Translations under genes and position numbers: made by a program
From: Syntrophorhabdales bacterium
GTDB lineage: Bacteria; Desulfobacterota; Syntrophorhabdia; Syntrophorhabdales; WCHB1-27
DNA: 64,000 nucleotides
Direction of reading: 5' to 3'
Assembly: GCA_035315185.1 (NCBI GenBank)
Contig: DATFYE010000101.1
Coordinates: 115-64,114 of the forward strand
Shown: positions 955 through 47,960 of the stretch, one piece after another
Layout: every line of letters begins with the position of its first letter
Position numbering within the stretch: position 1 is the stretch's first letter
Notes under the pieces: model-generated
The model's database searches: none
What the model was told of the DNA's origin: nothing
Seen by the model: only the letters and a program-made list of their open reading frames with translations

Positions 955-1275
955 AGGGAACACGCATCATCTTGTCGTTGACAGACTCAAGAATCATTGA
1001 CTGGCTGCGAATTACGATACAACAGCAGGACGTCAGGCCAACAGCATGCCCTGCAACACAGCTCTGCAGGCTCAGACAGTCACTAGACCAACGAAACGAT
1101 ATCACTGCTTCCTGGAGGCTGGCCCTTCGAGCTAAACGGGTCTATTCATCACTTCGGTTGGAAATCGATAAACGCCTTTTCATGCACCAATATGTATAGC
1201 ATTGATAATAGACCGTATAATGACTAATTTTTATTAACAGCTATTCGATAAAACTGTTTTTTTTGAGAGGTGTAT

Positions 1276-1548
1276 ATGGACCGTCGCGATGAAATAGCAA
1301 AGGTTGCTCACGACCTATTTGAAAAGGATGGCAGGCTACACGGAAAAGACTTTGATCACTGGATTGAAGCCGAGGCAATAGTAAAGGCGAAGTATGAAAA
1401 AGGGAATGAAAGCAAGCCTGGAAAAGAAGTGACCGCATCCAAACCGAAGAAGAAGGCTTCAACAAAAACGGTAACAAGAAAGGCAGTAGCCAAACCAAAC
1501 GCAGCAAAAAAGATGGGAACAAAGGCAAAGACAAAAAAGATGGCATAG
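1276..1548 (+). CDS. DUF2934 domain protein with Lys-rich tail
   Basis: N-terminal IAKVAHDLFEKDGRLHGKDFDHWIEAE matches the DUF2934 pattern (IA.RAYELWE..GRP.G.D..DWL.AE). GAGAGG lies upstream of the ATG at 1276. The ORF track starts 2 codons earlier at a GTG. Confidence 0.6.
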   Translation: MDRRDEIAKVAHDLFEKDGRLHGKDFDHWIEAEAIVKAKYEKGNESKPGKEVTASKPKKKASTKTVTRKAVAKPNAAKKMGTKAKTKKMA

Positions 1549-1636
1549 ATGCCACGGGAGCCAAGCTCGAAGAATAACCCTTGGTGCATTTTGTAATAAT
1601 TAAAAATTAATAATAACTATTTCACAGGAGGCAATT

Positions 1637-1873
1637 TTGAAAAAAATGAGTGAAGATGTGTTTAGGATAAACATAACGCCACCAAGCCATACTTCTCCCT
1701 CGGTTCAGATTTTTGTACATGAATATGGTATTAAAGAGCCTGATAGAATTGCAAGCCAAACAGTAGAGGCAACAAAGGATAAAAGTAAAGACGAAATAGC
1801 CAAAGAAATAGGCCTGGAGATTATTAAAAATTCTAAGGTGTTAAAAGCATGGTTTAAAGAAAATAAAAAATAG
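1637..1873 (+). CDS. hypothetical small protein
   Basis: 78-aa ORF preceded by CAGGAGG. No recognisable family. The start could be TTG 1637 or ATG 1646. Confidence 0.4.
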   Translation: MKKMSEDVFRINITPPSHTSPSVQIFVHEYGIKEPDRIASQTVEATKDKSKDEIAKEIGLEIIKNSKVLKAWFKENKK

Positions 1874-2046
1874 AATTACACTAAAATTGATAGAGGGAGG
1901 ATGGGCTTATTATCGGCGCTTCTTCTCTCACTTTATTGCAACCACTCAAGCCACACAGGATAGCAGTGATGAGAAAGAAAAACGCTATCCTATGCATGGG
2001 TGCCCTCCTCGGGCTTTGATAGTCACTTTGCACATCAGCTTATGTG

Positions 2047-2140
2047 CCCTGTTGTAATTCAAGGCATCCTCTTATCCCTTGTCAATCCTACGTCCTTTCG
2101 GGTGGTACCGGCAATAAGTTACTGAGGTTCTGCCGTGAGC
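2047..2140 (+). repeat. possible degenerate sixth copy of the stress-leader element
   Basis: CCCTGTTGTAA (2047-) and AATAAGTTACTGAGGTTCTGCCG (around 2113-2135) resemble the two anchors of the element. The spacing between them is about 23 nt longer. Upstream of the Gly/Tyr-rich gene. Confidence 0.25.
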
Positions 2141-2252
2141 TATACCCGAAAGATATATCCGAAAGAGAGGGTCTCCATACCCCAAAGAGAGTTTACTCGA
2201 TTACCGTGGTCAGGTTACAATAATAGGTAGGAATGCACCAAAGGGGGATACC

Positions 2253-2657
2253 ATGAAAAAGACTGTTTTGATTGCCTTGCTTCTTCTCACTGGGATAGCA
2301 CTGGCCTTCCCGCAACCAGGTTACTCATGGGGTCATCGTGGGTGGGGTGGTCACCGTGGTGGGTGGTACGGTCCGGGGGCGGTTATAGGGGCAGGTATAG
2401 GGGCAGCGGCAGCTGTTGTGGGCGCGGGTGCAGCGGTTGTTGGTGCTGTCGTCGGCGGCCCAGGGTATGGGTATAATAGTGGCCCAGGGTATGGGTATTA
2501 TGGACCACCAGCTGCCTACGGCTACCCCCAGCCTGCCTACGGTTACCCCCCTCCGGTCTATGGGTATGGGTACCCTTATCACGGACCGCGGTACTATCCC
2601 GGCTACAGGTACCCTGGTTATTACGGTGGAAGGGGCCATTACGGACACCGCTGGTAG
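2253..2657 (+). CDS. secreted Gly/Tyr/Pro/His-rich low-complexity protein
   Basis: Signal-peptide-like N-terminus (MKKTVLIALLLLTGIALAF). Next comes a Gly/Ala hydrophobic stretch, then GYGY/PPxxYGYP repeats, with His/Arg/Trp-rich ends. GGGGGA RBS-like run upstream. Confidence 0.6.
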   Translation: MKKTVLIALLLLTGIALAFPQPGYSWGHRGWGGHRGGWYGPGAVIGAGIGAAAAVVGAGAAVVGAVVGGPGYGYNSGPGYGYYGPPAAYGYPQPAYGYPPPVYGYGYPYHGPRYYPGYRYPGYYGGRGHYGHRW

Positions 2658-2918
2658 ATCAGGACAAGCCTGTTCTCTCACCCGCGCCCGACCACAGTAC
2701 ATGCGGAAAGCGTAGCGCTTAATCCTCGCAAACATGAAACTCGATCTGACTATCTGATGGCCTATACGAACATTGCCGATCCCTAGTTAACAAACGATGA
2801 TGCCCTACTTGACAAGTGTAGTAACTGATTTACGATTATGAGAGAGGCTGACCCGAAAAAACCAAACCCTCCGTGAGACGGGGGCGGAAAGCGCCGGGTG
2901 GCAGGCCGGGCGTATCAT

Positions 2919-2956
2919 GCTTTTTTCTGAAACTGGAGTGAGCATCAGAAAAAAGC
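2919..2956 (-). terminator. perfect 12-bp inverted repeat immediately 3' of the YggT-like gene
   Basis: GCTTTTTTCTGA (2919-2930) pairs with TCAGAAAAAAGC (2945-2956) around a 14-nt loop. It starts 1 nt after the stop codon. The stem is AT-rich, so it is atypical for an intrinsic terminator. Confidence 0.4.
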
Positions 2957-3250
2957 TTATACGTCAGTCTCTTTACGAGAATAGGGAAAAATCATCAGAA
3001 GTAAGTATCCTGCTATACCATACACGATAAGCGCGGCAAGGGTGGCAAAATCAACCACGAAACCTGACAATTTCCAGTCCGGAAGGATTTTGGCAAATGG
3101 CGCTACAAGCCGCGCCGTGGCACCATAAAGCCAGGCAACGAACGGCGTGCCTGCATTAACTACCAAAAACTTAAATATCAGTCTGAAAGTTAAAAGTAGT
3201 TCGATAATGCCCAAGACAATATTAATGAAAGCCCTGATAATTCTAAACAT
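2957..3250 (-). CDS. YggT family membrane protein
   Basis: 97 aa with two hydrophobic segments. Pattern IIELLLTFRLIFKFL...NAGTPFVAWLY..T..LV.PF resembles YGGT repeats. Confidence 0.6.
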   Translation of the reverse strand: MFRIIRAFINIVLGIIELLLTFRLIFKFLVVNAGTPFVAWLYGATARLVAPFAKILPDWKLSGFVVDFATLAALIVYGIAGYLLLMIFPYSRKETDV

Positions 3251-3653
3251 AAATTTGTTTCAATTCTGTCTTAAGTTAATATAACTCCTATGCTCCTTCG
3301 TATGCTATTGCTGAAAATGTTCTGTTACTACTATCTAACCATAGTCTTCCGTGTAGTCAAGGTCGAAAAAATAGTTTGTCAACGGCCAAACGCAAAAAAC
3401 GCCTGAAATAAGCGTTTTCGTAATGAAAATAAACGATTAGTAACTGTTAACTTTCAGAATCGGCTCACGGTGAAGGTTAGGTAGGTGGAAGCAAAGTATG
3501 GACTGCTGCCTCTTACGATTCATTTTTGCATTTTGCCTTTCAATACGACATTACAAATTGGAAAGCCAGCCCATCTTTCGTGGTCATCGGGCACAGGTCT
3601 TACGCCACCAGAACAAACATTGGCCGGCAGAAAAAGTGTCGGGTTGCTCTTTA

Positions 3654-3929
3654 ATGACTCCTCTCGTGCAGCTGGAGGCTGCCGTCATCGGCGGGAGGGT
3701 TATCATCAAACCAGCGACCGTGAAGGAACTGGGAGACGTGATACAGGAAGCCCTGGGGGGGATGGGAGAAAAGCAGGGGCAAGCCCTGAGACATACGGTG
3801 ATTGCCCCCACGTTTAAGAACACGGGTGACAAAGGGAAAACCGCCGTCAAAAAACCTGCCAGAGATATTCTTCTAGCAGCATCTATTCTTCGAAGTGGTT
3901 ACATTTCAGCATTGTCCAGGATGCATTAG
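3654..3929 (+). CDS. hypothetical protein (weak call)
   Basis: Protein-like C-terminal part of ORF 3498..3929, starting at MTPLVQLEAAVIGG. No RBS and no family recognised. Confidence 0.25.
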   Translation: MTPLVQLEAAVIGGRVIIKPATVKELGDVIQEALGGMGEKQGQALRHTVIAPTFKNTGDKGKTAVKKPARDILLAASILRSGYISALSRMH

Positions 3930-4060
3930 TATCAGGTGCAGACTCACCTGCTTCTTCCTACTCAAATCGCGTGTCTTAACTTCGCCTCCGCCATGCCACA
4001 GTACATACATGCAAAGCCCCAGGAATAGAACAACTACCCCGCGACGCGGACCTCCGCTCC

Positions 4061-4088
4061 TTGACAATCCCAAGAAAGCAGATAAAAT
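4061..4088 (+). promoter_or_regulatory. sigma70-like promoter candidate for the SDR/Spt-like/PAP2_C operon
   Basis: TTGACA (4061-4066), 16-nt spacer, TAAAAT (4083-4088). It lies about 90 nt upstream of the SDR start. Confidence 0.5.
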
Positions 4089-4175
4089 TAGGAAAGTTAT
4101 TCTCCCTCGCCCTTCCCCATCAACGGGAGGAAGGGCGGGGAGTGAAAAATTTTACGAGTCAGGAAGAAGAATTCA

Positions 4176-5156
4176 TTGAGAGCTTTGGTCACCGGAGGCA
4201 CAGGATTTATCGGAAGCCATTTGATAGAAGCGCTTATTCGAAAAGGAGTGCAAGTCCGCTGTCTCCTTCGAAGGACCAGTGATGTGAAGTGGCTGAAAGG
4301 TCTCCCTATCGAATTCGTTCCTGGCGATTGTAGTGATAAGACTTCTTTAGGGGAGGCAGTAAGGGGTGTCGATTGGGTATTCCATTTGGCAGGTGTGACC
4401 AAGGCGATCAAAGAGGAAACCTATTTTGAAGTAAACGGCCTTGGAACAGAAAATATGATCCATGCTTGTCTCGAAAATAATCCTCGTCTTCAAAAATTCA
4501 TCTATATTTCCAGCCAAGCAGCGGCAGGGCCAAGTAGAAATGGCATCAACAAAAAGGAGTCAGACCCCTGCGAACCGGTTTCCGTTTATGGCCGGAGCAA
4601 GCGCATGGGAGAGGAATCGGTTCTCGTCCATGCCCATGAACTTCCGGCTCTCATCCTTCGGCCTTCTGCTGTCTACGGGCCAAGAGATAAGGACATCTTT
4701 GCCTTATTCAAATGCCTCTCCAGAAGGATCAAACCCTGTCTCGCGGGTCAGTACCAACGCCTCAGCCTCTGTTATGTGCAGGATATCGTCCAGGGAATTC
4801 TGTTGGCCGTTGAGACTCAGGCAAAGAGTGGAGAAATCTTTTTCCTCTCTGATGGCAATGGCTACCGGATGGAGGAGATCGGTGATATTCTTGCACACGC
4901 AATGGGGATAACCGCTTTACGCATCCGTGTTCCCGGACGAATGGTAAAGGGTATCGCCGGTTTTTCGGAATATCTTTCTAAATTGTTTGGGAGGCCTTTC
5001 CTCCTTAACAAAGATAAAGCAGAAGAAATCGTCCAAAAAGAATGGGTGTGCGATATCACAAAACCCAAAACCCTCTTGGGCTTTAAACCAAGGGTTCTAC
5101 TCCCGGAGGGGGCCAGATTAACCTTTGAATGGTACAAAAAAGAAAAATGGTTATAA
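4176..5156 (+). CDS. NAD-dependent epimerase/dehydratase-family SDR (possible ceramide/ketosphinganine reductase-like)
   Basis: N-terminal Rossmann motif VTGGTGFIGSHL. Extended-SDR YxxxK (YGRSKRMGE). TTG start gives a canonical N-terminus. Confidence 0.85.
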   Translation: MRALVTGGTGFIGSHLIEALIRKGVQVRCLLRRTSDVKWLKGLPIEFVPGDCSDKTSLGEAVRGVDWVFHLAGVTKAIKEETYFEVNGLGTENMIHACLENNPRLQKFIYISSQAAAGPSRNGINKKESDPCEPVSVYGRSKRMGEESVLVHAHELPALILRPSAVYGPRDKDIFALFKCLSRRIKPCLAGQYQRLSLCYVQDIVQGILLAVETQAKSGEIFFLSDGNGYRMEEIGDILAHAMGITALRIRVPGRMVKGIAGFSEYLSKLFGRPFLLNKDKAEEIVQKEWVCDITKPKTLLGFKPRVLLPEGARLTFEWYKKEKWL

Positions 5157-5175
5157 CATAAGAACGAGGTCGCCC

Positions 5176-6357
5176 ATGGATATCCTTGAAAAGTGCGCAC
5201 AAGCCGCGGAGTATGAATCCGGATTGAAGGAAAGTGGCCACTATTTCCTATTTCGGAGGCTCGAATCCCCGCAGGATTCTGAGGTGGTGGTCAACGGGAA
5301 GAGAGTGATCATGATCGGTTCCAACAATTACCTTGGACTCACCAACCATCCCCGGGTGAAGGAAGCAGCGATCAAAGCGATTGAAAAATATGGTACCGGC
5401 TGTGCCGGTTCACGGATTCTAAATGGGAATGTTGATATCCACGAAGAACTGGAAAAGAAGTTGGCGAGGTTCTTGCGGAAGGAAGCTGCTCTGGTCTTCG
5501 CAACCGGCTACCAAACCAATCTGGGGGTGATCTCTGCTCTTGTGGGCCGGAACGATGTCGCTATTATCGATATGTACGATCATGCAAGCATCATGGACGG
5601 CTGTCGCCTCTCCTTCGGCGAGGTCAAGAAATACCGGCATAACGACATGGACGCTCTCGAAAGAGCTCTCGAAGGAACCAAGGAAAAAGACAAACTGATC
5701 ATCGTCGATGGCGTCTTCAGCATGGAAGGAGATATTGCTGATCTCCCTGCCATTGTGAAGCTGGCCAGGACCTATGGAGCGAGGATTATGCTGGATGACG
5801 CCCACGCGATCGGCGTTCTTGGAGATGGAGGACGGGGAACGGCGGAGCATTTTGGCCTGGAAAGCGAAGTAGATCTTATCATGGGAACCCACAGCAAATC
5901 CCTTGCCGCCATCGGCGGCTTTATCGCAGGGCCATCAGATGCGATAAGTTGGATCAAACACATTGCTCGCTCGATGATGTTCAGCGCCAGTCTCCCCCCC
6001 TCCCTGGTGGCATCGGCGAGTACCGCTTTGGACATCATCGAAGAAGAGCCCGAATTAAGAGCCCGGCTTTGGAGAAATACGCACAAGATGCTGAAAGGAT
6101 ATAAAACGCTCGGATATGATACGGGAACGAGCGAAACTCCGATCATCCCCGTCGTTATTAAAGACACCATGAAAACTTACGAGATGTGCAGGCTCCTCTT
6201 CGAAAACGGGGTTTTTGTCAATGCGGTCATTAGCCCTGCAGTCCCGCAAGGACGAGAACTCCTCAGGACAAGTTACATGGCGACCCATACGGAGGAACAG
6301 CTGGATAAGGTCCTGGCTGCCTTCGAAAAGGTGGGAAGACAGGTGGGAGTGATCTGA
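5176..6357 (+). CDS. alpha-oxoamine synthase, serine palmitoyltransferase-like (PLP-dependent)
   Basis: GSNNYLGL, GTGCAGSRILNG (the Spt-like GSR.LNG variant), DDAHAIG, and PLP lysine in THSKSLAAIGG. The ATG at 5176 follows GAACGAGG. The ORF-track N-terminal extension overlaps the SDR gene. Confidence 0.85.
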   Translation: MDILEKCAQAAEYESGLKESGHYFLFRRLESPQDSEVVVNGKRVIMIGSNNYLGLTNHPRVKEAAIKAIEKYGTGCAGSRILNGNVDIHEELEKKLARFLRKEAALVFATGYQTNLGVISALVGRNDVAIIDMYDHASIMDGCRLSFGEVKKYRHNDMDALERALEGTKEKDKLIIVDGVFSMEGDIADLPAIVKLARTYGARIMLDDAHAIGVLGDGGRGTAEHFGLESEVDLIMGTHSKSLAAIGGFIAGPSDAISWIKHIARSMMFSASLPPSLVASASTALDIIEEEPELRARLWRNTHKMLKGYKTLGYDTGTSETPIIPVVIKDTMKTYEMCRLLFENGVFVNAVISPAVPQGRELLRTSYMATHTEEQLDKVLAAFEKVGRQVGVI

Positions 6358-6409
6358 CGGAAACCGACAACACGACGACATACCGCCGGCATAGGAAGGA
6401 AGGCTGGCC

Positions 6410-7261
6410 TTGAACTTAAATGCAACGGACAGAATAACTATACTCTATAATGTCATCCTGGTTATTTTCATTTTCATTTTCAGGGATAAGATCGCAGCAT
6501 ACGCGCACCATCTCGCCTTTAATCTCTCAGTTATCCTTATGGTCCTTCTATTAAGCTTCAGGAGGAGGAGCAGTTTGTCGGCCCGTACGATGGTGAGCCT
6601 CTGGTATCCAGCGGTCCTGTACTGGCTACTTTACTATCAGACCGGGTTGATCAACAGGGTTGTCGTGCCCGAGTTCCTTGATGGCTTTTTTATGAATCTG
6701 GATGTCCGGATCTTCGGCGAATTTCCCGCCTTGTTCCTCCGTGGGAAACAGGGGAACCCATTCCTCGACGAGTTTTTTCACTTTTTTTACTTTAGTTATT
6801 ATTGGGTAATTCCCCTGACCGGCATTTTGCTGTTCCGCAAGGATATAAAGGCCTTCGAGAGAGCCATTTTCCAGCTTTCCTCCTTGCTCTATCTCTGTTT
6901 TGCCATCTTCATCCTGCTGCCGGTTGAGGGACCGTTAGCATTGCGAAATGAATATTATCATCGGGGTGGCCCGTTTCAGACAATCGTCGATTTTGTTTGG
7001 GCCGGGGGAGAACTTCCTGGCGCAGCCTTTCCAAGTTCCCATGTTGCAGCTATGTTTCTTGTAGCGTGGTGGGGGAGCACGCATTTTAAAAGGATGAAAA
7101 TCCCTTACTGGTTGACCTGCCTGTTCCTGTCAATTGCCACTGTCTACTGCATGTTTCATTATGCCGTCGATGTTATGGGAGGGCTGTTCCTCGGGGTTCT
7201 GGCAGTACTTACGCTTAACCGGGTGGACATAAAACGCTATTACGAGAAGACCTTTCGCTGA
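6410..7261 (+). CDS. PAP2_C-type integral membrane phosphotransferase (sphingomyelin/IPC-synthase-like)
   Basis: Polytopic membrane protein. Has the C2/C3 motifs PSSHVA and FHYAVDV but lacks the KxxxxxxRP C1 motif, as in Aur1/SMS-type enzymes. TTG start. Confidence 0.55.
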   Translation: MNLNATDRITILYNVILVIFIFIFRDKIAAYAHHLAFNLSVILMVLLLSFRRRSSLSARTMVSLWYPAVLYWLLYYQTGLINRVVVPEFLDGFFMNLDVRIFGEFPALFLRGKQGNPFLDEFFHFFYFSYYWVIPLTGILLFRKDIKAFERAIFQLSSLLYLCFAIFILLPVEGPLALRNEYYHRGGPFQTIVDFVWAGGELPGAAFPSSHVAAMFLVAWWGSTHFKRMKIPYWLTCLFLSIATVYCMFHYAVDVMGGLFLGVLAVLTLNRVDIKRYYEKTFR

Positions 7262-7266
7262 TTCCT

Positions 7267-7938
7267 CTATCGATCGCTGACCGTCTTCGCGACAAAAATA
7301 CAAAACAGAAGCCAGGCAAATCCTGTTGCGTACCCTGCGAGGACATCTGAAAGCCAATGAACGCCCAGATAGACGCGACTAAAACCTATGAGGAGGATCA
7401 GGAGGGCCAGCAAAGTAGCCACTATCCATTTTACTGTGGCGTTATTGATAAAGCGGAAGGTCAAGTATATGCAGAAACCATAGATCACGGTAGCGGAAAA
7501 GACGTGACCGCTCGGAAAACTGGAGCCAAAGACGTACATCTCCGTTTTGGGCCGAGGTCTTTGAAAAATAACCTTGAGGATATTGAGCACAGCCTGTCCA
7601 ATGGCGACACCAAGAAAAAGAGCTAGGAGTCTCCACCAGTTCTTTCTGATGAAAAGGATTACGCCGACTATTATGGCCACCATTACTACCAGGAAAATGT
7701 TGCCAAGACTGGTTATAGTCTCCAAAGGCCCGGTTAATCCAGGATTTGCCACTCTGATTACATATGCGTTGATCTTGAGATCAAGATGGAAAAGTGTTCC
7801 CTTCTCATTTAAGGAATCGATCATCGCCGCGAAGGAAAGAATACTGAGAGCGAAGCACGTCACGCCCACAGTGAGGCCTAGTCCATGCCACTTTCCTACC
7901 CGAAACCTGTCTTTTATGAAACCCCACGCCTTGGCCAT
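7267..7938 (-). CDS. PAP2 family lipid phosphatase
   Basis: All three PAP2 motifs are present: KVIFQRPRP, PSGH, SRVYLGVHWLSD. Start moved to ATG 7938 (MAKAWGF), because the longer ORF overlaps the upstream gene. Confidence 0.8.
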   Translation of the reverse strand: MAKAWGFIKDRFRVGKWHGLGLTVGVTCFALSILSFAAMIDSLNEKGTLFHLDLKINAYVIRVANPGLTGPLETITSLGNIFLVVMVAIIVGVILFIRKNWWRLLALFLGVAIGQAVLNILKVIFQRPRPKTEMYVFGSSFPSGHVFSATVIYGFCIYLTFRFINNATVKWIVATLLALLILLIGFSRVYLGVHWLSDVLAGYATGFAWLLFCIFVAKTVSDR

Positions 7939-7961
7939 TTGAGAGCCTGTTATAAGGGCAA

Positions 7962-8468
7962 CTACTTCGGCACCATCTTTTCGCGCCACTGCTCTCCCGT
8001 CTGCAGGTCTTTGCCATACACCTCGATATAATGAACTTTGGGCCCCGTCATCCCGCCGGAAGCGTTGATGTACATCTTCTCCAAGACAGCCGGCCGGCCG
8101 TTGATGATCGCTTCGGCACGGACGACATCCTTCTCCTCCTTCACGGTGATCTGCCACACGGGGGCGGCCATCAGGCTCATCTTATAGCCGTTTACCGACG
8201 GGTCCGGCTTGATGCTAAAACCGTAGGCCTTTTTCTTCTCCATCCAGGTGAGTTTCTCCCGGTGACCGTCCTCGGCAAGCATGACCCAGTAGGCGATCAC
8301 CGGCTCCTTGGGATCCAGTTTGCCGTCCGCGGTGAGCTGGGCGTCGTAATGCACGACGTTGGCGTTCGTGTTTCGCTCTATGGTGAAGAGCGGCGAAGTT
8401 TTTATCTGAGCCGCGGCCGGCGCGGCCAGCAGCGCCAGAACGGCGAACCACCAGATTGCCTTTTTCAT
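7962..8468 (-). CDS. secreted DUF4833-like protein
   Basis: Signal peptide MKKAIWWFAVLALLAAPAAA. GGAGG RBS before ATG 8468. Pattern LFTIERNTNANVVHYDA..YWVM resembles DUF4833. Confidence 0.55.
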   Translation of the reverse strand: MKKAIWWFAVLALLAAPAAAQIKTSPLFTIERNTNANVVHYDAQLTADGKLDPKEPVIAYWVMLAEDGHREKLTWMEKKKAYGFSIKPDPSVNGYKMSLMAAPVWQITVKEEKDVVRAEAIINGRPAVLEKMYINASGGMTGPKVHYIEVYGKDLQTGEQWREKMVPK

Positions 8469-8748
8469 GAGACCTCCTTCCCGGGTAAGGGTTTCACTGC
8501 GAACCATAGCATAGGCGACGAGTCTGCCCCCCACTTATTGTACCAGTTCCAGACTTATACTACCTCCCTTTTTTTGAGGCCCTGCCAGGAGAGTTCCGTG
8601 AGAAGGGCGCTATCGTCTCCCCGGTCCGGGTGGTTCTACCCGTGAGCGTCGTGCAGCAGACGGATGGGGTTGCGCTTCATCCTTCAGCTTGAGATTTCGA
8701 TCATTTCTTCGTATAGTATCTTACAGTAAGTTTGTACCGGAGGAAGCT

Positions 8749-9021
8749 TTGCCCACCACGTTCGAACGACTGCGGCAACTTTTCATAGCCCACTTTGATT
8801 ACAAAAGTGAAGAACTGACAGCCACGACGACGCTCGAAAATTTAGGCCTCGATTCTCTCGATATCATCGAATTCATGTTTGATATCGAAAATGAATTCAA
8901 TATCAGAATTCCTGACCGGGAGTTTAAGGTAACAACAATACAGGACATGGTAGATGCTCTGGACCGGTTCATCTCGGAACAAGATTCGGAACAAGATATA
9001 GGGTCTTCAAGTAATAATTGA
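8749..9021 (+). CDS. acyl carrier protein
   Basis: Phosphopantetheine site LGLDSLDIIEF. GGAGG lies 5 nt upstream of TTG 8749. Acidic C-terminal tail. Confidence 0.8.
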   Translation: MPTTFERLRQLFIAHFDYKSEELTATTTLENLGLDSLDIIEFMFDIENEFNIRIPDREFKVTTIQDMVDALDRFISEQDSEQDIGSSSNN

Positions 9022-9039
9022 GCTCAAGATGGATTATTT

Positions 9040-10278
9040 ATGAAACGGAAAGTTGCCGTCACAGGACTGGGCATTATTTCCCCTTGTGGGAATAGTATCG
9101 ATGATTTCTCATTCAATCTCATGGCCGGCAAGTCTGGGGTTAGAAGAATCTCTTCAGCCTATTCAAGCCAGCTTTCGGTAAAGATTGCCGCTGAAGTCGA
9201 TTTTAATCCTCTCGACTATTTCGTTAAGAAACAATTGTCCGGTATGGACCGTGTCAGCCAATTCGCTTTAGCTGCCGCTTCTCAAGCCTGGAAAGATTCA
9301 GAGCTCTCTCTGGATGCGAAAGAAAAAGAGCGAGCGGGAGTGTATATCGGTTGCGGTATGGGTGGGGGGAATACCATAGAGGATCTATACGATCAACTAT
9401 TCAAGCATAACGCCGACAGGGTAAGACCGCTCACGGTGCTCATGGTGATGAATAACGCTTCTGCTTCCCACATATCGATAGAATATGGTCTCTCAGGGCC
9501 CTGTTTGACACTATCCACTGCCTGTGCTTCCTCGGCAAACGCTATCGGGGAGGCTTTCCGGCAAGTCAGAGATGGATATGTTGACGTGATGCTCGCGGGA
9601 GGGGCCGAGGCCTTCTTGACCTATGGAGGTTTCCGAAGCTGGGAAGCTCTCAGGGTGCTCGCTGTCGAAGACCCCGAAGACCCGTCAAAATCCTGTAAGC
9701 CATTCTCCAAAAACCGTACCGGTTTAGTAATGGGTGAGGGTGCCGGCATGGTGGTGCTTGAGGAGATGGAAAGGGCCGTAAGACGGGGAGCACCGATTTA
9801 CGCGGAGCTTATTGGCTATGGTTCCACATCCGATGCCGGTCATATCACCAGACCTTCTCTCGAAGGGCAGGCGCGAGCGATGGCGGAAGCACTCGAAGAC
9901 GCAGGCTTATTGCCTGAAGATATAGACTATATCAATGCTCATGGGACGGCAACTGAGTGGAATGATCTATCGGAGACACAAGCCATCAAGAAGGTATTTG
10001 GCGATTATGCCTGCAAACTTCCCGTCAGCTCCACAAAATCGATGCATGGCCACACCATGGGAGCAGCCGGCGCTATTGAATTCATTGCTTCACTGCTTGC
10101 GATAAAAAATCAAGCCGTGCCCCCAACGATCAACCTTGACCAACCTGACCCGCAGTGCGACCTCGACTATGTCCCGAATATCGGTCGTACGGGGGTGACG
10201 GTGCATAGCGTGATGTCAAATGCTTTCGCTTTTGGAGGAAGCAATGCAGCGCTCATTGCCGGGAAAATGAAGGGGTAG
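9040..10278 (+). CDS. beta-ketoacyl-ACP synthase II family (FabF-like)
   Basis: Active-site Cys in LSTACASSANAIG. His motifs NAHGTAT and SMHGHTMGAAG. C-terminal FAFGGSNAAL. Confidence 0.9.
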   Translation: MKRKVAVTGLGIISPCGNSIDDFSFNLMAGKSGVRRISSAYSSQLSVKIAAEVDFNPLDYFVKKQLSGMDRVSQFALAAASQAWKDSELSLDAKEKERAGVYIGCGMGGGNTIEDLYDQLFKHNADRVRPLTVLMVMNNASASHISIEYGLSGPCLTLSTACASSANAIGEAFRQVRDGYVDVMLAGGAEAFLTYGGFRSWEALRVLAVEDPEDPSKSCKPFSKNRTGLVMGEGAGMVVLEEMERAVRRGAPIYAELIGYGSTSDAGHITRPSLEGQARAMAEALEDAGLLPEDIDYINAHGTATEWNDLSETQAIKKVFGDYACKLPVSSTKSMHGHTMGAAGAIEFIASLLAIKNQAVPPTINLDQPDPQCDLDYVPNIGRTGVTVHSVMSNAFAFGGSNAALIAGKMKG

Positions 10279-10286
10279 GAATAGAG

Positions 10287-10952
10287 GTGGCACGTGTGGC
10301 AAAAAATGAGTACGTTCAGATCGATAGGCGTACGCTGGGACCCATCAATACTACCTGCGATTCCAATTGCTACACTAATTGCTACATAATTACCTGTCCC
10401 CACACCGGAGATAGCGTGTTGATAGACGCGCCCGCAGAAGCACCTGAAATTCTAAAGCAGTTGAAAGGGACCAATCCCAGATACATACTGATAACTCATG
10501 GCCATACGGATCATGTCGGGGCACTATCCGAGCTAAAGTCGAAGCTAAGGATTCCCGTTGGTGCCCATCGTCTGGACGCCGATGGTCTTTCTGAGCGACC
10601 TGACTTTCTCCTGCATGACGGCGAAGAAATATCCTTTGGAAACATACGTCTCAAAGTCCTTCATACGCCTGGTCACACACCCGGCAGTGTCTGCTTCTTA
10701 ATAGGAAAGCATCTTATTTCGGGAGACACTATCTTCCCTGGAGGCCCGGGTAAGACAGGGTCGCCGGGTGATTTAAACCAAATAATCAAATCCATAACCA
10801 GTAAGGTCTTTGTCTTGCCTGATGATACAGAGATATACCCTGGCCACGGCGATCCCACCATAGTGAGAAAAGAGAAGACAGAACTTGCCATCTTTTCCTC
10901 CCGTCCCCATGATCCTGATCTGTTCGGGGACGTACTTTGGCTTTCATCCTAA
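10287..10952 (+). CDS. MBL-fold metallo-hydrolase
   Basis: THGHTDHVG metal-binding motif, later HTPGHTPGS and GHGD. GTG start assumed. Confidence 0.8.
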   Translation: MARVAKNEYVQIDRRTLGPINTTCDSNCYTNCYIITCPHTGDSVLIDAPAEAPEILKQLKGTNPRYILITHGHTDHVGALSELKSKLRIPVGAHRLDADGLSERPDFLLHDGEEISFGNIRLKVLHTPGHTPGSVCFLIGKHLISGDTIFPGGPGKTGSPGDLNQIIKSITSKVFVLPDDTEIYPGHGDPTIVRKEKTELAIFSSRPHDPDLFGDVLWLSS

Positions 10953-11098
10953 CCATTTTTTGGATGGACTACCGTAGTATCTCTACTGCTCACGTTCCCG
11001 TATCAGTGCTTCGGAGCAAGATGTCGGCAAATAGGAGCGAGCAGAGCATATTAATTTTGAAGATTGCGTATCCGGTAAATCTTGCTGCCTGTTACCGG

Positions 11099-11209
11099 TC
11101 CAATCCCTGTAGCAAAAAGACGACACGCTCGTACACGAAAGCGTTACAAAATAATTGTTGGTTCTGCGACAGACACGATTGATTGTCTGTTGTATCGTAT
11201 ATACAGAGG
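11099..11209 (+). repeat. stress-leader element copy A (homology to copy C extends to about 11270)
   Basis: tCCAATCCCTGTAGCAAAAAGACGACACGCTCGTACACGAAAGCGTTACAAAATAATTGTTGGTTCTGCGACAGAC, then hairpin ACAGAC/GTCTGT, then TGTAT..ATACAGAGG. The 56-nt core matches copy C at 53/56 by hand count. About 75 nt upstream of the CsbD gene. Confidence 0.85.
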
Positions 11210-11283
11210 CGATACCAGCATGTTCACAATCAACATCCTAAACATTTACGCGCCTCTTATACATCGATCTAAGGAGGAATACC

Positions 11284-11463
11284 ATGAAATCGAGCATTAG
11301 GGACAAGGCGGAAGGCACCTTTCACGAAGCAAAGGGTAAAGCCAAGGAAATGGCCGGGAAAATCACCGATAATCCCAAGTTGGAGTCCAAAGGCAAAGCC
11401 GAAAAGATAGCCGGCAAAGTGCAAGAAAAGGTCGGCCAGGTCAAGAAGGTCCTGGGGAAGTAG
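11284..11463 (+). CDS. CsbD family stress protein (59 aa, below the ORF-track cutoff)
   Basis: AAGGAGG at 11271-11277, ATG at 11284. MKSSIRDKAEGTFHEAKGKAKEMAGKITDNPKLESKGKAEKIAGKVQEKVGQVKK matches the CsbD pattern. Confidence 0.75.
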   Translation: MKSSIRDKAEGTFHEAKGKAKEMAGKITDNPKLESKGKAEKIAGKVQEKVGQVKKVLGK

Positions 11464-11479
11464 TAAGAGCGGGCGTATC

Positions 11480-11668
11480 ATGTACCAAGGGAGGCAAACA
11501 ATCGGCGAGATCATCGACAAGACCAAAGGCAGAATCAAGCAAGCTGTGTGGGCGACCTGACCGGTAACAAAAGGGTCAAGCGAGAGGGCGAGAGGGACGA
11601 ACGCAAGGCCAAGTCGAAAGCGCGGTGAAGGATGCGAAGTGCACGGTCAACGGAAGAATCCAAAACTG
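11480..11668 (+). pseudogene. CsbD-like gene disrupted by two frameshifts
   Basis: Three consecutive frames read IIDKTKGRIKQAV / GDLTGNKRVKREGERDERKAKSKA / VKDAKCTVNGRIQN. Together they reconstruct a CsbD-like sequence. Confidence 0.45.
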
Positions 11669-11705
11669 ACACAGATGTTTAACAAAATGAAGGGAGGAAC
11701 TTACC

Positions 11706-11792
11706 ATGGATACGACAACGCTCATCATCATCGCCGTCGTGTTGTTCCTCGTGTTCGGCGGGAGCGGCGGTTACTATTGGACTAGACGGTAG
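11706..11792 (+). CDS. 28-aa single-TM peptide (hypothetical)
   Basis: GGGAGGAAC RBS, then ATG 11706. MDTTTLIIIAVVLFLVFGGSGGYYWTRR. Confidence 0.35.
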   Translation: MDTTTLIIIAVVLFLVFGGSGGYYWTRR

Positions 11793-11923
11793 GCGTCACT
11801 TCTCACATTATTTTGACGCAACAGATTCACGATAGTTTGACATGTTGCAGGATTGTTTAACCGGAGGGGGATACGATTTCCCTTAATCAGATGTGAAATT
11901 AAAATTCAAGGAGGAGAAAGAAA

Positions 11924-12376
11924 ATGAAGAAAGCATTGATGATGGCACTCACCGTAGTGATCAGCGTCGCCTTTGTCACGGTAGCGTTTGCCCAGGCACC
12001 TGCGGGAACACCCGAGCAAAAGACGACAACGACAACGACAACCACAACACCTGAGAAGAAGGTAACTACAACGACAACCGAAACAACAAAAAGCAAGGGC
12101 ATGTCGTTCAGGGGCAGAGTCACGGCCATGGATACGGCGGCGAAAATGATGACCGTGAAGGGCAAGAAAGGCGATATGACCTTCGATGTTTCAAACGCTA
12201 AGATGAAGGGCCAGCCTAAGGCCGGCGACAGAGTCAGGGTGCAGTACACGGAGATGGATGGCAAGATGATGGCCTCCTGGGTCACCATGCATCGAGCGAA
12301 GACGACGAAGACAACCACAACAAAAACAACGGAGACGAAAGAAGAAACTACTACTCCTGCTGCTCCTGCGAAGTAA
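11924..12376 (+). CDS. secreted protein with poly-Thr linkers and a Met-rich central domain
   Basis: AGGAGGAG RBS and a signal peptide ending AFAQA. T9 and T5 runs flank a domain of about 80 aa (FRGRVTAMD..MMTVKGKKGDMTFDV..GDRVRVQY). A second Thr-rich tail follows. Confidence 0.6.
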   Translation: MKKALMMALTVVISVAFVTVAFAQAPAGTPEQKTTTTTTTTTPEKKVTTTTTETTKSKGMSFRGRVTAMDTAAKMMTVKGKKGDMTFDVSNAKMKGQPKAGDRVRVQYTEMDGKMMASWVTMHRAKTTKTTTTKTTETKEETTTPAAPAK

Positions 12377-12393
12377 GAGTCGCAACCACAGTG

Positions 12394-12429
12394 CAAAAAA
12401 AGGGGGGGGATTGGTTCTCCCCCCTTTTA
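12394..12429 (+). terminator. rho-independent terminator
   Basis: AGGGGGGGGA / loop TTGGTT / CTCCCCCC followed by TTTTAT, about 18 nt after the stop codon. Confidence 0.65.
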
Positions 12430-12648
12430 TTCTGCCCTACCACTGCCCTCGATCGGTGTGAACATATGCGCCGAACAATCGATCGGTCCAGACGGTGGAG
12501 GAGCTTATGAACCTACGGAAAGAAAGTGTGGATAAGAGAATATTGCTGACGTCGCTGTCAAAATAGGTAACCGTCTCGGCCTCCGTCGTTCCGGTGGTGA
12601 GCGTCAGGGTCCTATGGAACTTCGAAGCCTTACCTGAGACCGCGTAAC

Positions 12649-13596
12649 TCAGTGATGCTCGTATACTACGGGTTGCGAGACGGATTCCGGGGAAACAAAA
12701 TCTAATTCCACCGACTCTGGAGGAGAGGTGGCCCGGCTGCTGCTGGAAGCAAGGCCCCGTGTTTCCTCCTTCGCTGCGGCTGTGAGCTCGGAGACGTTGC
12801 GTTCAGCTCTTGGGAGACGTATAACGATCTCGCGGCCCACCTCGTATTCTGTACGAGCCAGCGTTATATCTCGAAGGTGAATCAGAGACGAAAAGGAATT
12901 GATCGCGAAATCGATGGGGTCGATGGCCGGACGGAAGGTGGAATCGTAACGACGGCTGGTGCACGAAAAGATCTCGTGCCCGTCCAGTGTCGAGACCATT
13001 CTCACCCGTGCGCTAACTCGCCAGGCTGAGAGGAAAAAGGCGTAGTACGCCTCATAACTGAGCAGCTCGCCGTAGACCACGGTATCAGCATCCAGCCAGC
13101 GCCCGAGCTCTTCGGGGGAGACGGCGTTGAGTTTGTCCCTGTCGGTGATTCCGTGATGGGCCAACACAGCATCTACCGTTAATAAAGGGACGAGGAGGAA
13201 TTCTCGTGTGGCGAGATCACCAGCAAGGGAACGGCGCACCCGGTTGGTATGGGTCCATGACCACCTCTTTAGCTCTTCCTTATCGCGAGTCTTGACTGAA
13301 ACCCTATCAATTAAGTAGGTGCCTTTCCCCTCATCGACAAAGGGCAGCACTGCAATCTTGCGTGGCGGACGTTTTTGATAATCTCCGGCGATCACGAATG
13401 ATGTGCTTCCCGGATCGGCATCCATGATACGATCGTACCAGGTCATGCGTCCGTGCGTTTCTATCTCCTTTTCGGTCAGGAAGAAGGGGCTCGGCTGGGG
13501 TTGCGTGCTCGCGCATCCCGCGAGCAGCACCAGCAGCAAAAAACATACATAAAGCCGACACCAGGATGATCCAGGTTTCGTGGACAGTGCGGTCAT
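12649..13596 (-). CDS. lipoprotein, unknown function
   Basis: Lipobox LLAGC after a hydrophobic signal. GGAGG RBS. Family not recognised with confidence. Confidence 0.55.
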   Translation of the reverse strand: MTALSTKPGSSWCRLYVCFLLLVLLAGCASTQPQPSPFFLTEKEIETHGRMTWYDRIMDADPGSTSFVIAGDYQKRPPRKIAVLPFVDEGKGTYLIDRVSVKTRDKEELKRWSWTHTNRVRRSLAGDLATREFLLVPLLTVDAVLAHHGITDRDKLNAVSPEELGRWLDADTVVYGELLSYEAYYAFFLSAWRVSARVRMVSTLDGHEIFSCTSRRYDSTFRPAIDPIDFAINSFSSLIHLRDITLARTEYEVGREIVIRLPRAERNVSELTAAAKEETRGLASSSSRATSPPESVELDFVSPESVSQPVVYEHH

Positions 13597-14069
13597 CTGT
13601 GCTTCCTCCGTTCGTCGTACCCCACAGGGCTCTTCTCAACCCTTTGTCATCCTACTTCCTATGTTCTTCCTCCCCTCCTTCAGGTTTTCCTTGAGGCTGA
13701 GACTGTTGTGGCTTCCGTAACGCTGTGAGCTCTTGTAAGAGCTGTTTTATGTGCTGTCTTCCCATCAGTAAGTCCTGAGTCGTTCACATCAATTTCTTTC
13801 CAATGTAAGGCATCTTCGACAAGGCCGCAACAAACAGAGATGGTCCTCGGCGGCTTAAATACATGTTTGTTCGGGTTAAATGTCATTTGTCGTATATACT
13901 ATTACATGGCTGGCTTGTGGGACAAGGAAAACTTTGGAACTTTGAACACGGCCGTTACGCTTACGATACACCTTTGTCGAGCTGCCGAAGCATTTCTTTT
14001 CAGTAATAGGCAATAAGGTGATCTCTACCTCTTCCCCGTAATATCTCTACTGTTTCTTGCGGGTGATAA

Positions 14070-15425
14070 CTAATGCTTCCCCATTGAGTCGCAAGCCCCT
14101 GCAAATGGTTGTGGATTTCTCAGGCCTTTGAAATAACGTTTACGGGTGGATAGATTGACCCCAGCGTACACTTGGCAACCCAATAGAGTCCTTTTCCATG
14201 GGCTCATGCCAAAGAATCGTTTCAACATTGCGCCCACAGAATAGGCTTGTCTGTTCAAGTGGGCGTAGCCGCTAATGAGCTCGTCAGCAGTCATGCCCTT
14301 GGGTTGAAAGAGGAGTGTATCCGGAGGATGTCCACGGAGCCACCAGTCACGCACAAACAACCTGCCTTCGCTTAAGAGACGCTTATATAACCGTGTTCCC
14401 GGATAAGGAGTGAGAATCCTTAGCTGGACAGCATCCATACGACATCTCATTATAAACTCAAGGGTCTGCTCGAACACATCCTTGTTTTCGTAATCAAATC
14501 CAAAAACAAAGGAGCCGAGTATACCGAAACCTTCGCCATGGAATCGACGCATTGCCTCATAGAAATCGATGCTCAGGTTCTTTATTTTCTTCACCTCATT
14601 CTGTGTTCCTTTCTGTACCGATTCGAATCCGATCAAAAGGCCCATGCACCCTGAACGTCTCATCAACCTGAGCAGCTCCAAATCCTCAGCCAACGACACT
14701 GTTCCCTGTCCCAGCCATAGCCGCCGAAGAGGTATCATTTCAGTAAAAAGTTTTTTAGCTGCATTCCGGTTCAGTCCAAGGGCGTCATCGACGAAGAAGA
14801 GGTGAGGGGAATCAATAGCCTCTATCTCGGCAACCACCTCGTGAACCGGCCTGACTCGATACTGATGCCCCAAGGTCTGGCCGATGGAACAGAATTCGCA
14901 ATCGTACGGACACCCGCGGGATGTCTCGACACCGATAGGAATAGGGGCATAACTATTACCCTGGGTTCCGGGGAAGAGATCTCGTCGTGGCTTCGGCAGG
15001 CCTTTGAGATCTGTCATTTTAGCGGCCCGATATAGTCTTTGCATCTGTTCCGAGGCGGCATCCGATACAAGCTGTGGCCAAATACCCTCCGCTTCTCCCA
15101 CAACGACGGCGTCTGCATGCTCTAAAGCTTCCTCAGGCAACACAGTAGGATGTATTCCTCCCATCACCACTTTCACAGCCTTCCGGCGATAGGTGTCAGC
15201 GATAGCATAGGCTCTAAGCGCAAGGTCGGTCATGACGGTGATACCCACCAAATCCACATCTTGATTCATGTCATCGGGAGCAAAAGCTTCATCGGCAATG
15301 GTTACTGTGTGGCCAGGCGGAGTAAGCGCCGCCAGAAGAGGAAGATTTACCCCTTGTAGCTTGAAAGGGCTGGATAGAGTCTCTTCACGTTGTTCGCGCG
15401 GTGCGATAAGTTTTATTTTCATCAT
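14070..15425 (-). CDS. B12-binding domain radical SAM protein
   Basis: N-terminal B12-binding-like Rossmann region (VDLVGITVMT.., VVMGGIHPT). CxxxCxxC cluster SRGCPYDCEFCS. ATGA overlap with the upstream gene. Paralog of 37594..38967. Confidence 0.9.
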   Translation of the reverse strand: MMKIKLIAPREQREETLSSPFKLQGVNLPLLAALTPPGHTVTIADEAFAPDDMNQDVDLVGITVMTDLALRAYAIADTYRRKAVKVVMGGIHPTVLPEEALEHADAVVVGEAEGIWPQLVSDAASEQMQRLYRAAKMTDLKGLPKPRRDLFPGTQGNSYAPIPIGVETSRGCPYDCEFCSIGQTLGHQYRVRPVHEVVAEIEAIDSPHLFFVDDALGLNRNAAKKLFTEMIPLRRLWLGQGTVSLAEDLELLRLMRRSGCMGLLIGFESVQKGTQNEVKKIKNLSIDFYEAMRRFHGEGFGILGSFVFGFDYENKDVFEQTLEFIMRCRMDAVQLRILTPYPGTRLYKRLLSEGRLFVRDWWLRGHPPDTLLFQPKGMTADELISGYAHLNRQAYSVGAMLKRFFGMSPWKRTLLGCQVYAGVNLSTRKRYFKGLRNPQPFAGACDSMGKH

Positions 15426-19250: not shown

Positions 19251-19253
19251 GGA

Positions 19254-30943: not shown

Positions 30944-31115
30944 ATGAGTTTTTCCAGCATTGTCTTTTGTTGCTAAGAGATGTCTTTAGCTATTATTGAG
31001 AACAAAATAGATTCTTGTCAAGTAATGTCACGACATAATGAGAGAAGCATGCTTGAGAATCCCGAAGGACATGGTGCTTAAACCTTGAAGATTTCCGAAT
31101 TCGTGCTGAAGTTTG

Positions 31116-37530: not shown

Positions 37531-37593
37531 CGGACACTTTATTTCTTGCAACCTAAACAATATGCAAAAGAATTTCTTAAGGCTGCCTCGGTA

Positions 37594-45250: not shown

Positions 45251-45336
45251 TCTCAGACAGAGCCGAAGCCCCTTGCTTACGTATGGGTGGGTCATATATT
45301 CGTATGCCAGGTGACAAACAAAAGAAAGGAGAGGGG

Positions 45337-46155: not shown

Positions 46156-46163
46156 GCCCGGCG

Positions 46164-47896: not shown

Positions 47897-47960
47897 TCGA
47901 GGAGAGCATCATGAATAAATGGCTGGCCAGGGAGGCCCTTCGCAAAAAGGTGGGCAAGGG

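Follow-up and report, generated by a model that had tools for sequence, protein, structure and literature searches.

A block at positions 4061-10952 of a 64,000-nucleotide stretch of Syntrophorhabdales DNA (the window, in what follows), from an uncultured member of the Desulfobacterota, is probably the core of a locus for the biosynthesis of phosphosphingolipids, a reading to which we give a probability of about 0.8 on the basis of sequence. The block encodes an alpha-oxoamine synthase (AOS) of the serine palmitoyltransferase (SPT) type, an extended short-chain dehydrogenase/reductase (SDR) resembling the reductase CerR, and a membrane enzyme of the PAP2_3 family resembling the inositol phosphorylceramide (IPC) synthase AUR1. 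A homologue of the bacterial ceramide synthase bCerS, called YghO in Escherichia coli, is encoded elsewhere in the window. Together with SPT and the CerR-like SDR, this protein completes, by homology, the trio of enzymes known from the ceramide pathway of bacteria. A sequence-only reading of this DNA had already put forward a sphingolipid function, which is now supported by the placement of the synthase in a clade of SPTs, by the likeness of the SDR to CerR, by the family of the PAP2 enzyme and by a syntenic gene set in other genomes.

The block contains eight intact open reading frames (ORFs) in three transcription units (Table 1), at or very near the positions where the sequence-only reading had placed them, and all eight genes and their quoted motifs were confirmed by ORF and motif checks and by Pfam and NCBIfam matches. 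Unit 1 carries the SDR, SPT and PAP2_3 genes separated by 19 and 52 nt. Unit 2 (7267-8468) is convergent on unit 1 and consists of the DUF4833 gene and a gene for a classical PAP2 phosphatase, the pair that had been described as inserted on the opposite strand. Unit 3 encodes an acyl carrier protein (ACP), a FabF-type beta-ketoacyl-ACP synthase II (KAS II) and a metallo-beta-lactamase-fold (MBL) hydrolase. The block is there as described, except that its first position, 4061, is a promoter-like site and not coding sequence.

The synthase ORF opens at 5125, and we chose the ATG at 5176, in agreement with homologues of 393 aa. The protein has the pyridoxal phosphate (PLP)-dependent AOS fold (Pfam Aminotran_1_2, 200.6 bits) and carries GSRILNG as well as His136, Asp207/His210 and Lys241; these last residues align to the catalytic and PLP-binding positions of the Sphingobacterium multivorum SPT. 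Its best NCBIfam model is NF047600 (CFB-type SPT) with 553 bits, compared to 412 for Kbl, 396 for BioF, 268 for ALAS and 222 for CqsA. According to the PDB comparison, the top match is the S. multivorum SPT (3A2B/8GUH) with 432 bits, followed by a Thermus BioF/Kbl enzyme (321), the Sphingomonas SPTs (299-307), Kbl (282), two cysteate acyltransferases (278 and 266) and BioF (229). Identity to the Spt of E. coli BL21 is 43%. We built a neighbour-joining tree (500 bootstraps) from the window enzyme, the S. multivorum SPT, the Spt, Kbl and BioF of E. coli BL21 and 21 AOS of related loci; HemA, CqsA and CapB, which score much lower in the NCBIfam and PDB comparisons, stand outside it. With 98% bootstrap support, the window enzyme falls into a clade together with all operon-linked SPTs and with the SPT of S. 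multivorum, which has been characterised biochemically, and this clade joins E. coli BL21 Spt at 89%, Kbl and BioF being excluded. The synthase had been called Spt-like with the proviso that it should not cluster with BioF or Kbl, and the tree places it apart from both. By sequence, it is of the Bacteroidetes/delta-proteobacterial subgroup of SPTs and not of the Caulobacter (Rhodobacteria) subgroup. The proposed likeness to a Caulobacter-type ceramide cluster is limited by the subgroup of the SPT and by the ACP, which has no specific similarity to AcpR.

As reference for the ceramide genes we used the E. coli BL21(DE3) cluster and not the Caulobacter sequences. The BL21(DE3) genes yghO, fatty-acyl-AMP ligase, 'epi', ACP and spt are homologues of Caulobacter CC_1154 (bCerS), aasR, CC_1164 (CerR), acpR and spt (PMC9386255). 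The window SDR contains GGTGFIG (GxxGxxG) and YGRSK (YxxxK) and matches the 'epi' product with 28% identity and 128 bits (E = 2e-39). Against SDRs from SPT operons of other phyla it scores 162-272 bits, against the best SDR in the PDB 107 bits and against RfaD, a generic extended SDR, 58 bits. This specific likeness to the BL21 CerR homologue is in line with the role of ceramide-pathway reductase that had been proposed for the epimerase-like SDR.

No ceramide synthase had been seen inside the block, and the homologue indeed lies 18 kb off, as the first gene of an operon for an iterative type I fatty acid/polyketide synthase (PKS). The sequence-only reading had pointed to the GNAT-fold enzymes of this synthase operon as the nearest candidates. 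The operon was right, and the protein is the 373-aa product of its first gene, not the FemAB-like GNAT, which was rejected, no similarity being detectable with either YghO or the family profile. The 373-aa protein aligns with E. coli BL21 YghO over its full length (32% identity over 379 positions, E = 3e-68; hhalign probability 100%). Members of the bCerS family reach 26-34 bits with Pfam Acetyltransf_1 (cut-off 20.7), the window protein 16 bits, and the family profile gives weak matches to GNAT structures. For the AlphaFold2 (AF2) model of the 373-aa protein, of low confidence (predicted local distance difference test, pLDDT, 51), the top Foldseek matches are all tandem-GNAT or FemX proteins. 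From this homology, we think that the 373-aa protein is likely a ceramide synthase.

The third gene of unit 1 is a candidate for the headgroup step. It had been assigned to a PAP2_C transferase with SSH and HYAVDV motifs; the motifs and a transferase-like type hold, while the family is PAP2_3 (66 bits, cut-off 27), with PAP2_C below threshold (24.5 bits, cut-off 27). The C2 motif PSSH (208-211) and the C3 motif HYAVD (250-254) are present, the C1 motif KxxxxxxRP is absent, and His211, His250 and Asp254 are invariant in 14 diverse homologues. A PDB search with the single sequence gave no matches. When a profile of diverse PAP2_3 homologues was compared with the cryo-EM structures of yeast AUR1 (9IVC, 9VJ3), about 190 positions including both motifs aligned (E = 0.0014). 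The enzyme therefore appears not to be the ordinary phosphatase that would have spoken against the sphingolipid reading, but a protein of PAP2_3/AUR1 type. In Bacteroides, IPC synthase activity has been proven for BT_1522, a homologue of AUR1 that acts on bacterial dihydroceramide (PMC9246714). Considering the motifs, the AUR1 profile match and the BT_1522 precedent, we regard it as most likely that the enzyme takes a phospho-alcohol from a glycerophospholipid and moves it onto ceramide. Genes for inositol synthesis (MIPS, PIP synthase) were not found within the window.

Further information was obtained from related genomes. We scanned one genome per GTDB species with the alignment of PAP2_3 homologues as query, which gave 349 relatives, and kept the best 79 loci, whose gene content was determined by tblastn with the window proteins; 52 of these, in which the upstream sequence amounts to 4.5 kb or more, were taken as informative. 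An SPT homologue lies within 6 kb of PAP2_3 in 43 of these 52 and an SDR in 42, and SPT, SDR and a homologue of the 373-aa protein are found together in 28 loci, the last one between the other two. The best 79 loci come from about ten phyla, among them Gemmatimonadota, Fibrobacterota, Verrucomicrobiota, Marinimicrobia, Deferrimicrobia, Desulfobacterota and Planctomycetota. The commonest operon has the order SPT, 373-aa protein, SDR, PAP2_3 on a single strand, and it recurs in Gemmatimonadota, Fibrobacterota, Akkermansiaceae, Marinimicrobia, Deferrimicrobia and one deltaproteobacterial genome; the operon thus has a fourth conserved gene in PAP2_3. Since the gene set of the window is syntenic in at least 13 related genomes, and since PAP2_3 and SPT are so frequently linked, the set is not a chance assembly.

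Some of these loci deserve a separate comment. In L046 (10524-13599) and about 10 other Gemmatimonadota and Akkermansiaceae loci the SPT-bCerS-SDR-PAP2_3 operon continues with three genes, for a 224-aa protein, a double-PDZ protein and a LuxE-like acyl-protein synthetase. Four loci of Phycisphaerales/Sedimentisphaerales (L015, L017, L018, L021) have a PAP2_3 65-70% identical to that of the window, paired with a divergent AOS (34% identity) that falls outside the SPT clade in the tree, with bCerS-like and SDR-like genes alongside; this AOS may use a different amino-acid substrate. PAP2_3 and PKS genes have probably been exchanged horizontally between Planctomycetota and Desulfobacterota. In the complete genome of Thermodesulfobacteriota ORM2a (L011, 8735-9685), the SPT ORF beside PAP2_3 ends after 316 aa and there is no upstream SDR, so this copy of the cluster may be decaying.

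The tail of the PKS operon begins 3 kb from the sphingolipid block and its head is 18 kb away. The PKS gene starts 45 bp downstream of the 373-aa gene, and the two are probably co-transcribed. Domain analysis of the synthase showed no thioesterase. The bCerS homologues at the head of this operon form a tight clade (79-91% identity across Desulfobacterota, 82% in a Sedimentisphaerales genome), found at the head of the same synthase operon in every context examined (the window, L012, L021, L085 and L086). In at least 11 related loci (among them L002, L004-L006, L010, L013, L026 and L027) the PKS tail directly adjoins the SPT/ACP-KAS cluster, and the adjacency takes several arrangements, exemplified by the window, L002-L013, L012, L021 and L086. 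That the two clusters recur side by side in different orders, and in two phyla, speaks for a single pathway. We infer that the PKS-linked bCerS paralogue could off-load the chain built by the synthase onto the sphingoid amine. Both paralogues stand side by side in a Geobacteraceae metagenome-assembled genome (L086, 5620-17134), where SDR, AOS and a bCerS of the in-operon type are accompanied by PAP2_3 on the opposite strand, a bCerS of the PKS type, a 281-aa gene and the PKS. In the window, the two clusters, which are contiguous in relatives, are separated by an insert of about 3 kb (10953-14069) with an ORF for a secreted Thr-rich protein of 150 aa (11924-12376), a GNA1162-like lipoprotein gene (12649-13596) and a strong bidirectional terminator-like hairpin (12402-12424).

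Unit 3 could supply acyl chains. The TTG start of the ACP was confirmed by an independent gene call, and the protein scores under every housekeeping AcpP cut-off. The KAS II has the motifs ACAS, HGTAT and HGH and a Cys-His-His set. The best PDB match of the hydrolase is 2XF4, a hydroxyacylglutathione hydrolase (109 bits), and it is nearest to YcbL-type glyoxalase II, a thioester hydrolase; a thioesterase function is possible. Pfam and NCBIfam found no AMP-ligase in the block, consistent with the earlier remark that a FabF-like KAS and an MBL hydrolase stand beside the ACP instead of an acyl-ACP synthetase. ACP and KAS are kept in 12 related loci and the MBL gene in only a subset of relatives. 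By its position, the module could plausibly serve SPT or bCerS as a private source of acyl chains. Regarding unit 2, DUF4833 is conserved beside PAP2_3 in the Desulfobacterota/Planctomycetota clade (13 loci), and for this protein we found no PDB relative, NCBIfam match or literature. The classical PAP2 phosphatase, present among the relatives only in the window and L001, is a variable accessory gene.

Altogether, we propose the following pathway. SPT would condense L-serine with a long-chain acyl thioester to 3-ketodihydrosphingosine, and the CerR-like SDR, as homology and operon position suggest, would reduce the 3-keto group before or after N-acylation. The N-acylation would be carried out by the bCerS/YghO-family protein, a clear homologue whose gene would have left the SPT operon and now heads the PKS operon, with an acyl chain plausibly provided by the thioesterase-less PKS. 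PAP2_3, with the family and motifs described above, would then act like AUR1 or sphingomyelin synthase, moving a phospho-headgroup from phosphatidylethanolamine, phosphatidylglycerol or phosphatidylinositol to the C1 hydroxyl of ceramide by means of its His-His-Asp triad and releasing diacylglycerol. To judge from its position, the ACP/FabF/MBL module may be a dedicated supply that elongates a chain bound to an ACP of its own and includes a thioesterase-like hydrolase, in place of the AcpR/acyl-ACP synthetase pair of Caulobacter, and DUF4833 and the classical PAP2 phosphatase would be accessory genes.

Several observations weigh against this reading. The synthase remains below the equivalog cut-off of NF047600 (553 versus 640 bits), which bears on its amino-acid specificity. 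The SDR begins with MRALVTGGTGFIG, the Rossmann motif being directly at the start, and has no signal peptide, while Caulobacter CerR has been reported to be periplasmic (PMC11087976). The E. coli CerR homologue likewise has no signal peptide. Periplasmic location is a trait of one CerR member and does not define the family. The match between PAP2_3 and AUR1 is weak (21 bits), and the AF2 model of PAP2_3 (pLDDT 39) is unusable; this model and that of the 373-aa protein are poor because the alignments are shallow. Identity between the window bCerS homologue and the in-operon copies is only 34-41%, and the former belongs to the separate PKS-linked clade, so its acceptor could differ. An orthology of the ACP with AcpR was rejected, the match (24.6 bits) being limited to the phosphopantetheine site DSL. 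Finally, ACP, KAS and MBL are absent from several related loci (L007, L011, L026).

The divergence of the PKS-linked paralogue would also fit a situation in which the two halves are independent: SDR, SPT and PAP2_3 would make an ordinary sphingolipid with a ceramide synthase encoded elsewhere, and the PKS operon with its YghO-like acyltransferase, perhaps together with ACP-KAS-MBL, would make another amide-linked or exported lipid, both sharing an envelope-lipid island. The window is generally rich in envelope-lipid genes, L086 and L021 retain an in-operon bCerS copy too, L085 has the 373-aa homologue and the PKS with no SPT within 10 kb upstream, and the canonical four-gene operon of Gemmatimonadota and other phyla has no PKS nearby. 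However, close relatives have no other bCerS homologue within 10 kb of SDR-SPT, the PKS operon adjoins PAP2_3/SPT in at least four gene orders and two phyla, which is hard to explain without functional linkage, and a PKS that lacks a thioesterase needs an off-loading acyltransferase. We therefore regard independent halves as rather unlikely and keep to a single pathway.

The low equivalog score of the synthase, in turn, raises the question of its substrate. The specificity of an AOS cannot be read from sequence alone, and use of alanine, glycine or cysteate would lead to 1-deoxysphingoid bases or capnine-type sulfonolipids; 1-deoxyceramides and sulfono-derivatives dominate euxinic waters, where Desulfobacterota are candidate producers (PMC11334938). 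We think that a non-serine substrate is improbable, given that the characterised SPT scores far above the PDB cysteate acyltransferases, that the enzyme shares the 98% clade with it, and that an AUR1-like transferase in the same operon would imply that the C1 hydroxyl is free, as is the case only in a base derived from serine. Even less probable, in our view, is that PAP2_3 is a lipid phosphatase, with for example ceramide-1-phosphate, the phosphate of a sphingoid base or lipid A as substrate. Sources do label PAP2_3 a 'membrane-associated phospholipid phosphatase', the protein belongs to the PAP2 superfamily (PF01569, 31.3 bits), and its best single PDB match by E-value is a PgpB-type phosphatase of Bacillus subtilis. 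That match, however, covers a 56-residue C3 region only, in contrast to the alignment with AUR1, the PAP2_3 score is well above that of PF01569, and the C1 motif missing here is present in the neighbouring classical PAP2. The headgroup transferase thus remains our preferred reading of this gene.

It is tempting to go one step further, although here the odds are against us and the proposal is tentative. The whole supercluster of about 26 kb (4061-30293) might be the basis for sphingolipids whose N-acyl chain or long-chain base comes from a dedicated iterative type I synthase, with the PKS-linked bCerS as an off-loading amide synthase and PAP2_3 as a widespread bacterial ceramide headgroup transferase, and it might be the origin of the C32-C39 acyl sphingolipids of anoxic waters. 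Sphingolipids with such very long N-acyl chains occur in euxinic water and are tentatively tied to Desulfobacterota, their organism and pathway of origin being unestablished (PMC11334938). They are, however, 1-deoxy forms, which would not need PAP2_3.

Table 1. Features of the sphingolipid block and of other lipid-related genes in the window (coordinates of the window; aa, amino acids).
Feature	Position	Strand	Details
Sigma-70-like promoter of the SDR-SPT-PAP2_3 operon	4061-4088	+	TTGACA-16-TAAAAT, 11/12 consensus matches
Conserved GC-rich hairpin, operon 5' untranslated region (UTR)	4102-4142	+	
Extended SDR, CerR-like, putative 3-keto reductase	4176-5156	+	Unit 1; 326 aa; Pfam Epimerase 141.6 bits
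SPT-type AOS	5176-6357	+	Unit 1; 393 aa
PAP2_3 (AUR1/IPC-synthase-like) membrane enzyme, putative ceramide phospho-headgroup transferase	6410-7261	+	Unit 1; 283 aa
Classical PAP2 lipid phosphatase	7267-7938	-	Unit 2; 223 aa; C1 KVIFQRPRP, C2 PSGH, C3 SRVYLGVHWLSD
DUF4833 secreted protein	7962-8468	-	Unit 2; 168 aa; Pfam 119 bits; signal peptide
Promoter-like site for ACP-KAS-MBL	8689-8717	+	TTGAGA-17-TATAGT
Specialised ACP	8749-9021	+	Unit 3; 90 aa; DSL motif; TTG start; PP-binding 50.3 bits
FabF-type KAS II	9040-10278	+	Unit 3; 412 aa; TIGR03150 503.5 bits (cut-off 493.75)
Glyoxalase-II/YcbL-like MBL hydrolase	10287-10952	+	Unit 3; 221 aa; HGHTDH motif
PKS operon tail	14070-21195	-	Five features following the PKS (next five lines)
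B12-radical SAM enzyme	14070-15425	-	PKS operon tail
EptA-like phosphoethanolamine transferase	15422-17203	-	PKS operon tail
ABC-2 ATPase and permease (exporter)	17185-19250	-	PKS operon tail
FemAB-like GNAT	19254-20450	-	PKS operon tail
Phosphopantetheinyl transferase	20443-21195	-	PKS operon tail
Iterative type I fatty acid/polyketide synthase	21201-29126	-	2641 aa; FabK-like enoyl reductase, ketosynthase, malonyl-acyltransferase, ACP, ketoreductase, dehydratase
bCerS/YghO-family protein, putative tandem-GNAT N-acyltransferase, PKS-linked paralogue	29172-30293	-	373 aa; predicted ceramide synthase
Cls, cardiolipin-synthase-type phospholipase D (PLD) enzyme	31113-32543	+	
AsmA	41849-43291		
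MlaE/F/D	45283-47896		
DedA/VTT	55886-56464		

The region upstream of unit 1 is also conserved. About 140 nt of non-coding sequence 5' of the SDR gene (4035-4175) are 73-90% identical in 13-14 related loci, and both hexamers of the promoter are invariant or nearly so across 13 of them. The operon 5' UTR of 86 nt is predicted to fold with -33.4 kcal/mol (z = -3.67), with limited covariation support. This stretch, for which no Rfam match was found, may serve to regulate the sphingolipid operon. The promoter-like site of unit 3 is followed by the ribosome-binding site GGAGGAAG and then by the TTG start. Further upstream, some 3 kb of the window (955-4035) are sparsely coding, with short ORFs only and no Pfam, Rfam or tRNA matches, and they are unconserved in related loci except for the promoter-proximal part. 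Rfam and tRNA scans of the whole window gave no matches.

The window had also been described as enriched in envelope-lipid functions, and the Cls, Mla, AsmA and DedA genes named in that connection were all located. A dual-specificity/protein tyrosine phosphatase (PTP)-like phosphatase gene (30377-30943, minus strand) and the adjacent PLD/Cls gene recur beside sphingolipid genes in more than one arrangement, also in L008, L010 and L086, and both enzymes may take part in headgroup chemistry. The MlaF-like ABC ATPase (46104-47411, plus strand), flanked by MlaE (45283-46155) and MlaD (47408-47896), has an unusual fusion to a C-terminal GGDEF-like domain. Directly after the Mla genes (47919-50633, plus strand) there is a gene for a 904-aa protein in which an ADP-forming acyl-CoA synthetase is fused to a GNAT domain, with the architecture of Pat-type protein acetyltransferases. 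Besides the B12-binding radical SAM gene of the PKS operon, the 64-kb window contains two more on the plus strand (34724-36229 and 37546-38967). All three weakly match hopanoid/BchE-type enzymes and the NCBIfam model 'lipid biosynthesis B12-binding/radical SAM', and a role in modifying lipid chains is conceivable.

By now, sphingolipids have been predicted for bacteria of dozens of phyla, while the post-ceramide steps and the origin of unusual chains are known in few model organisms only. For Spt-like genes in particular, predictions already cover Desulfobacterota and some 40 phyla (PMC11334938). In the window and the 79 related loci, an AUR1-like PAP2_3 emerges as the fourth, conserved member of ceramide operons in many phyla, and a ceramide-synthase paralogue is seen to be tied to a type I fatty acid/polyketide synthase in anaerobic Desulfobacterota and Planctomycetota. 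If this is true, these loci provide gene candidates for the headgroup step and for the very-long-chain sphingolipids used as environmental biomarkers. Literature searches aimed at operons of this type in phyla such as Gemmatimonadota and Fibrobacterota, and at a ceramide phosphoethanolamine synthase of bacteria, brought up no specific report, and a PNAS 2024 paper on the lipidomes of sulfate reducers has no sphingolipid content.

The core of Spt, bCerS and CerR is the known bacterial pathway, described in Caulobacter crescentus (CCNA_01220, _01212 and _01222) and in E. coli BL21 (spt, yghO and 'epi'). All three families are present in the window, and the three genes form one operon in other phyla among the relatives. 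The window differs from Caulobacter in that its bCerS gene is detached, joined to a PKS operon and of a distinct paralogue clade, and in that PAP2_3 is part of the operon, whereas the Caulobacter headgroup is built by Cpg enzymes (PMC11324152). With AUR1 and BT_1522, the IPC synthases, and with sphingomyelin synthases, the window enzyme shares the PAP2_3 Pfam family, the His-His-Asp motifs and the absence of the C1 phosphatase motif. Its similarity to AUR1 is remote, and its likeness to BT_1522 is drawn from the description of that protein; unlike BT_1522, its gene is inside an SPT operon and not in an inositol-lipid cluster.

The SgaAB(C) cluster of Pseudomonas fluorescens MYb115 also couples an iterative type I PKS genomically to an SPT-type AOS and a reductase, and these PKS-derived Pseudomonas products include phosphoglycerol sphingolipids (PMC12134224). 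In that system the long-chain base is fed by the PKS, which adjoins the AOS, and a eukaryote-like KDSR acts as reductase (PMC12134224). The window has neither the direct PKS-AOS pairing nor a KDSR-type reductase: its PKS lies 15 kb from the AOS and is paired with a bCerS paralogue, its reductase is a CerR-like extended SDR, and there is a separate ACP/FabF module. A private ACP with dedicated chain-handling enzymes, as in this module, is found in the AcpXL/FabF very-long-chain module of rhizobia. The AcpR/AasR supply of Rhodobacteria likewise places a private ACP with dedicated chain-handling enzymes beside sphingolipid genes (PMC9386255); in the window, in contrast, the ACP comes with FabF and a glyoxalase-II-like hydrolase and the acyl-ACP synthetase is absent, while in some loci of Gemmatimonadota there is a LuxE-like acyl-protein synthetase instead. 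In summary, compared with the literature searched, three traits of this locus appear to be new: PAP2_3 as a conserved member of ceramide operons across many phyla, the clade of PKS-linked bCerS paralogues, and an ACP/FabF/MBL module in place of an acyl-ACP synthetase. The coupling to a PKS hints at sphingolipids with unusual acyl chains.

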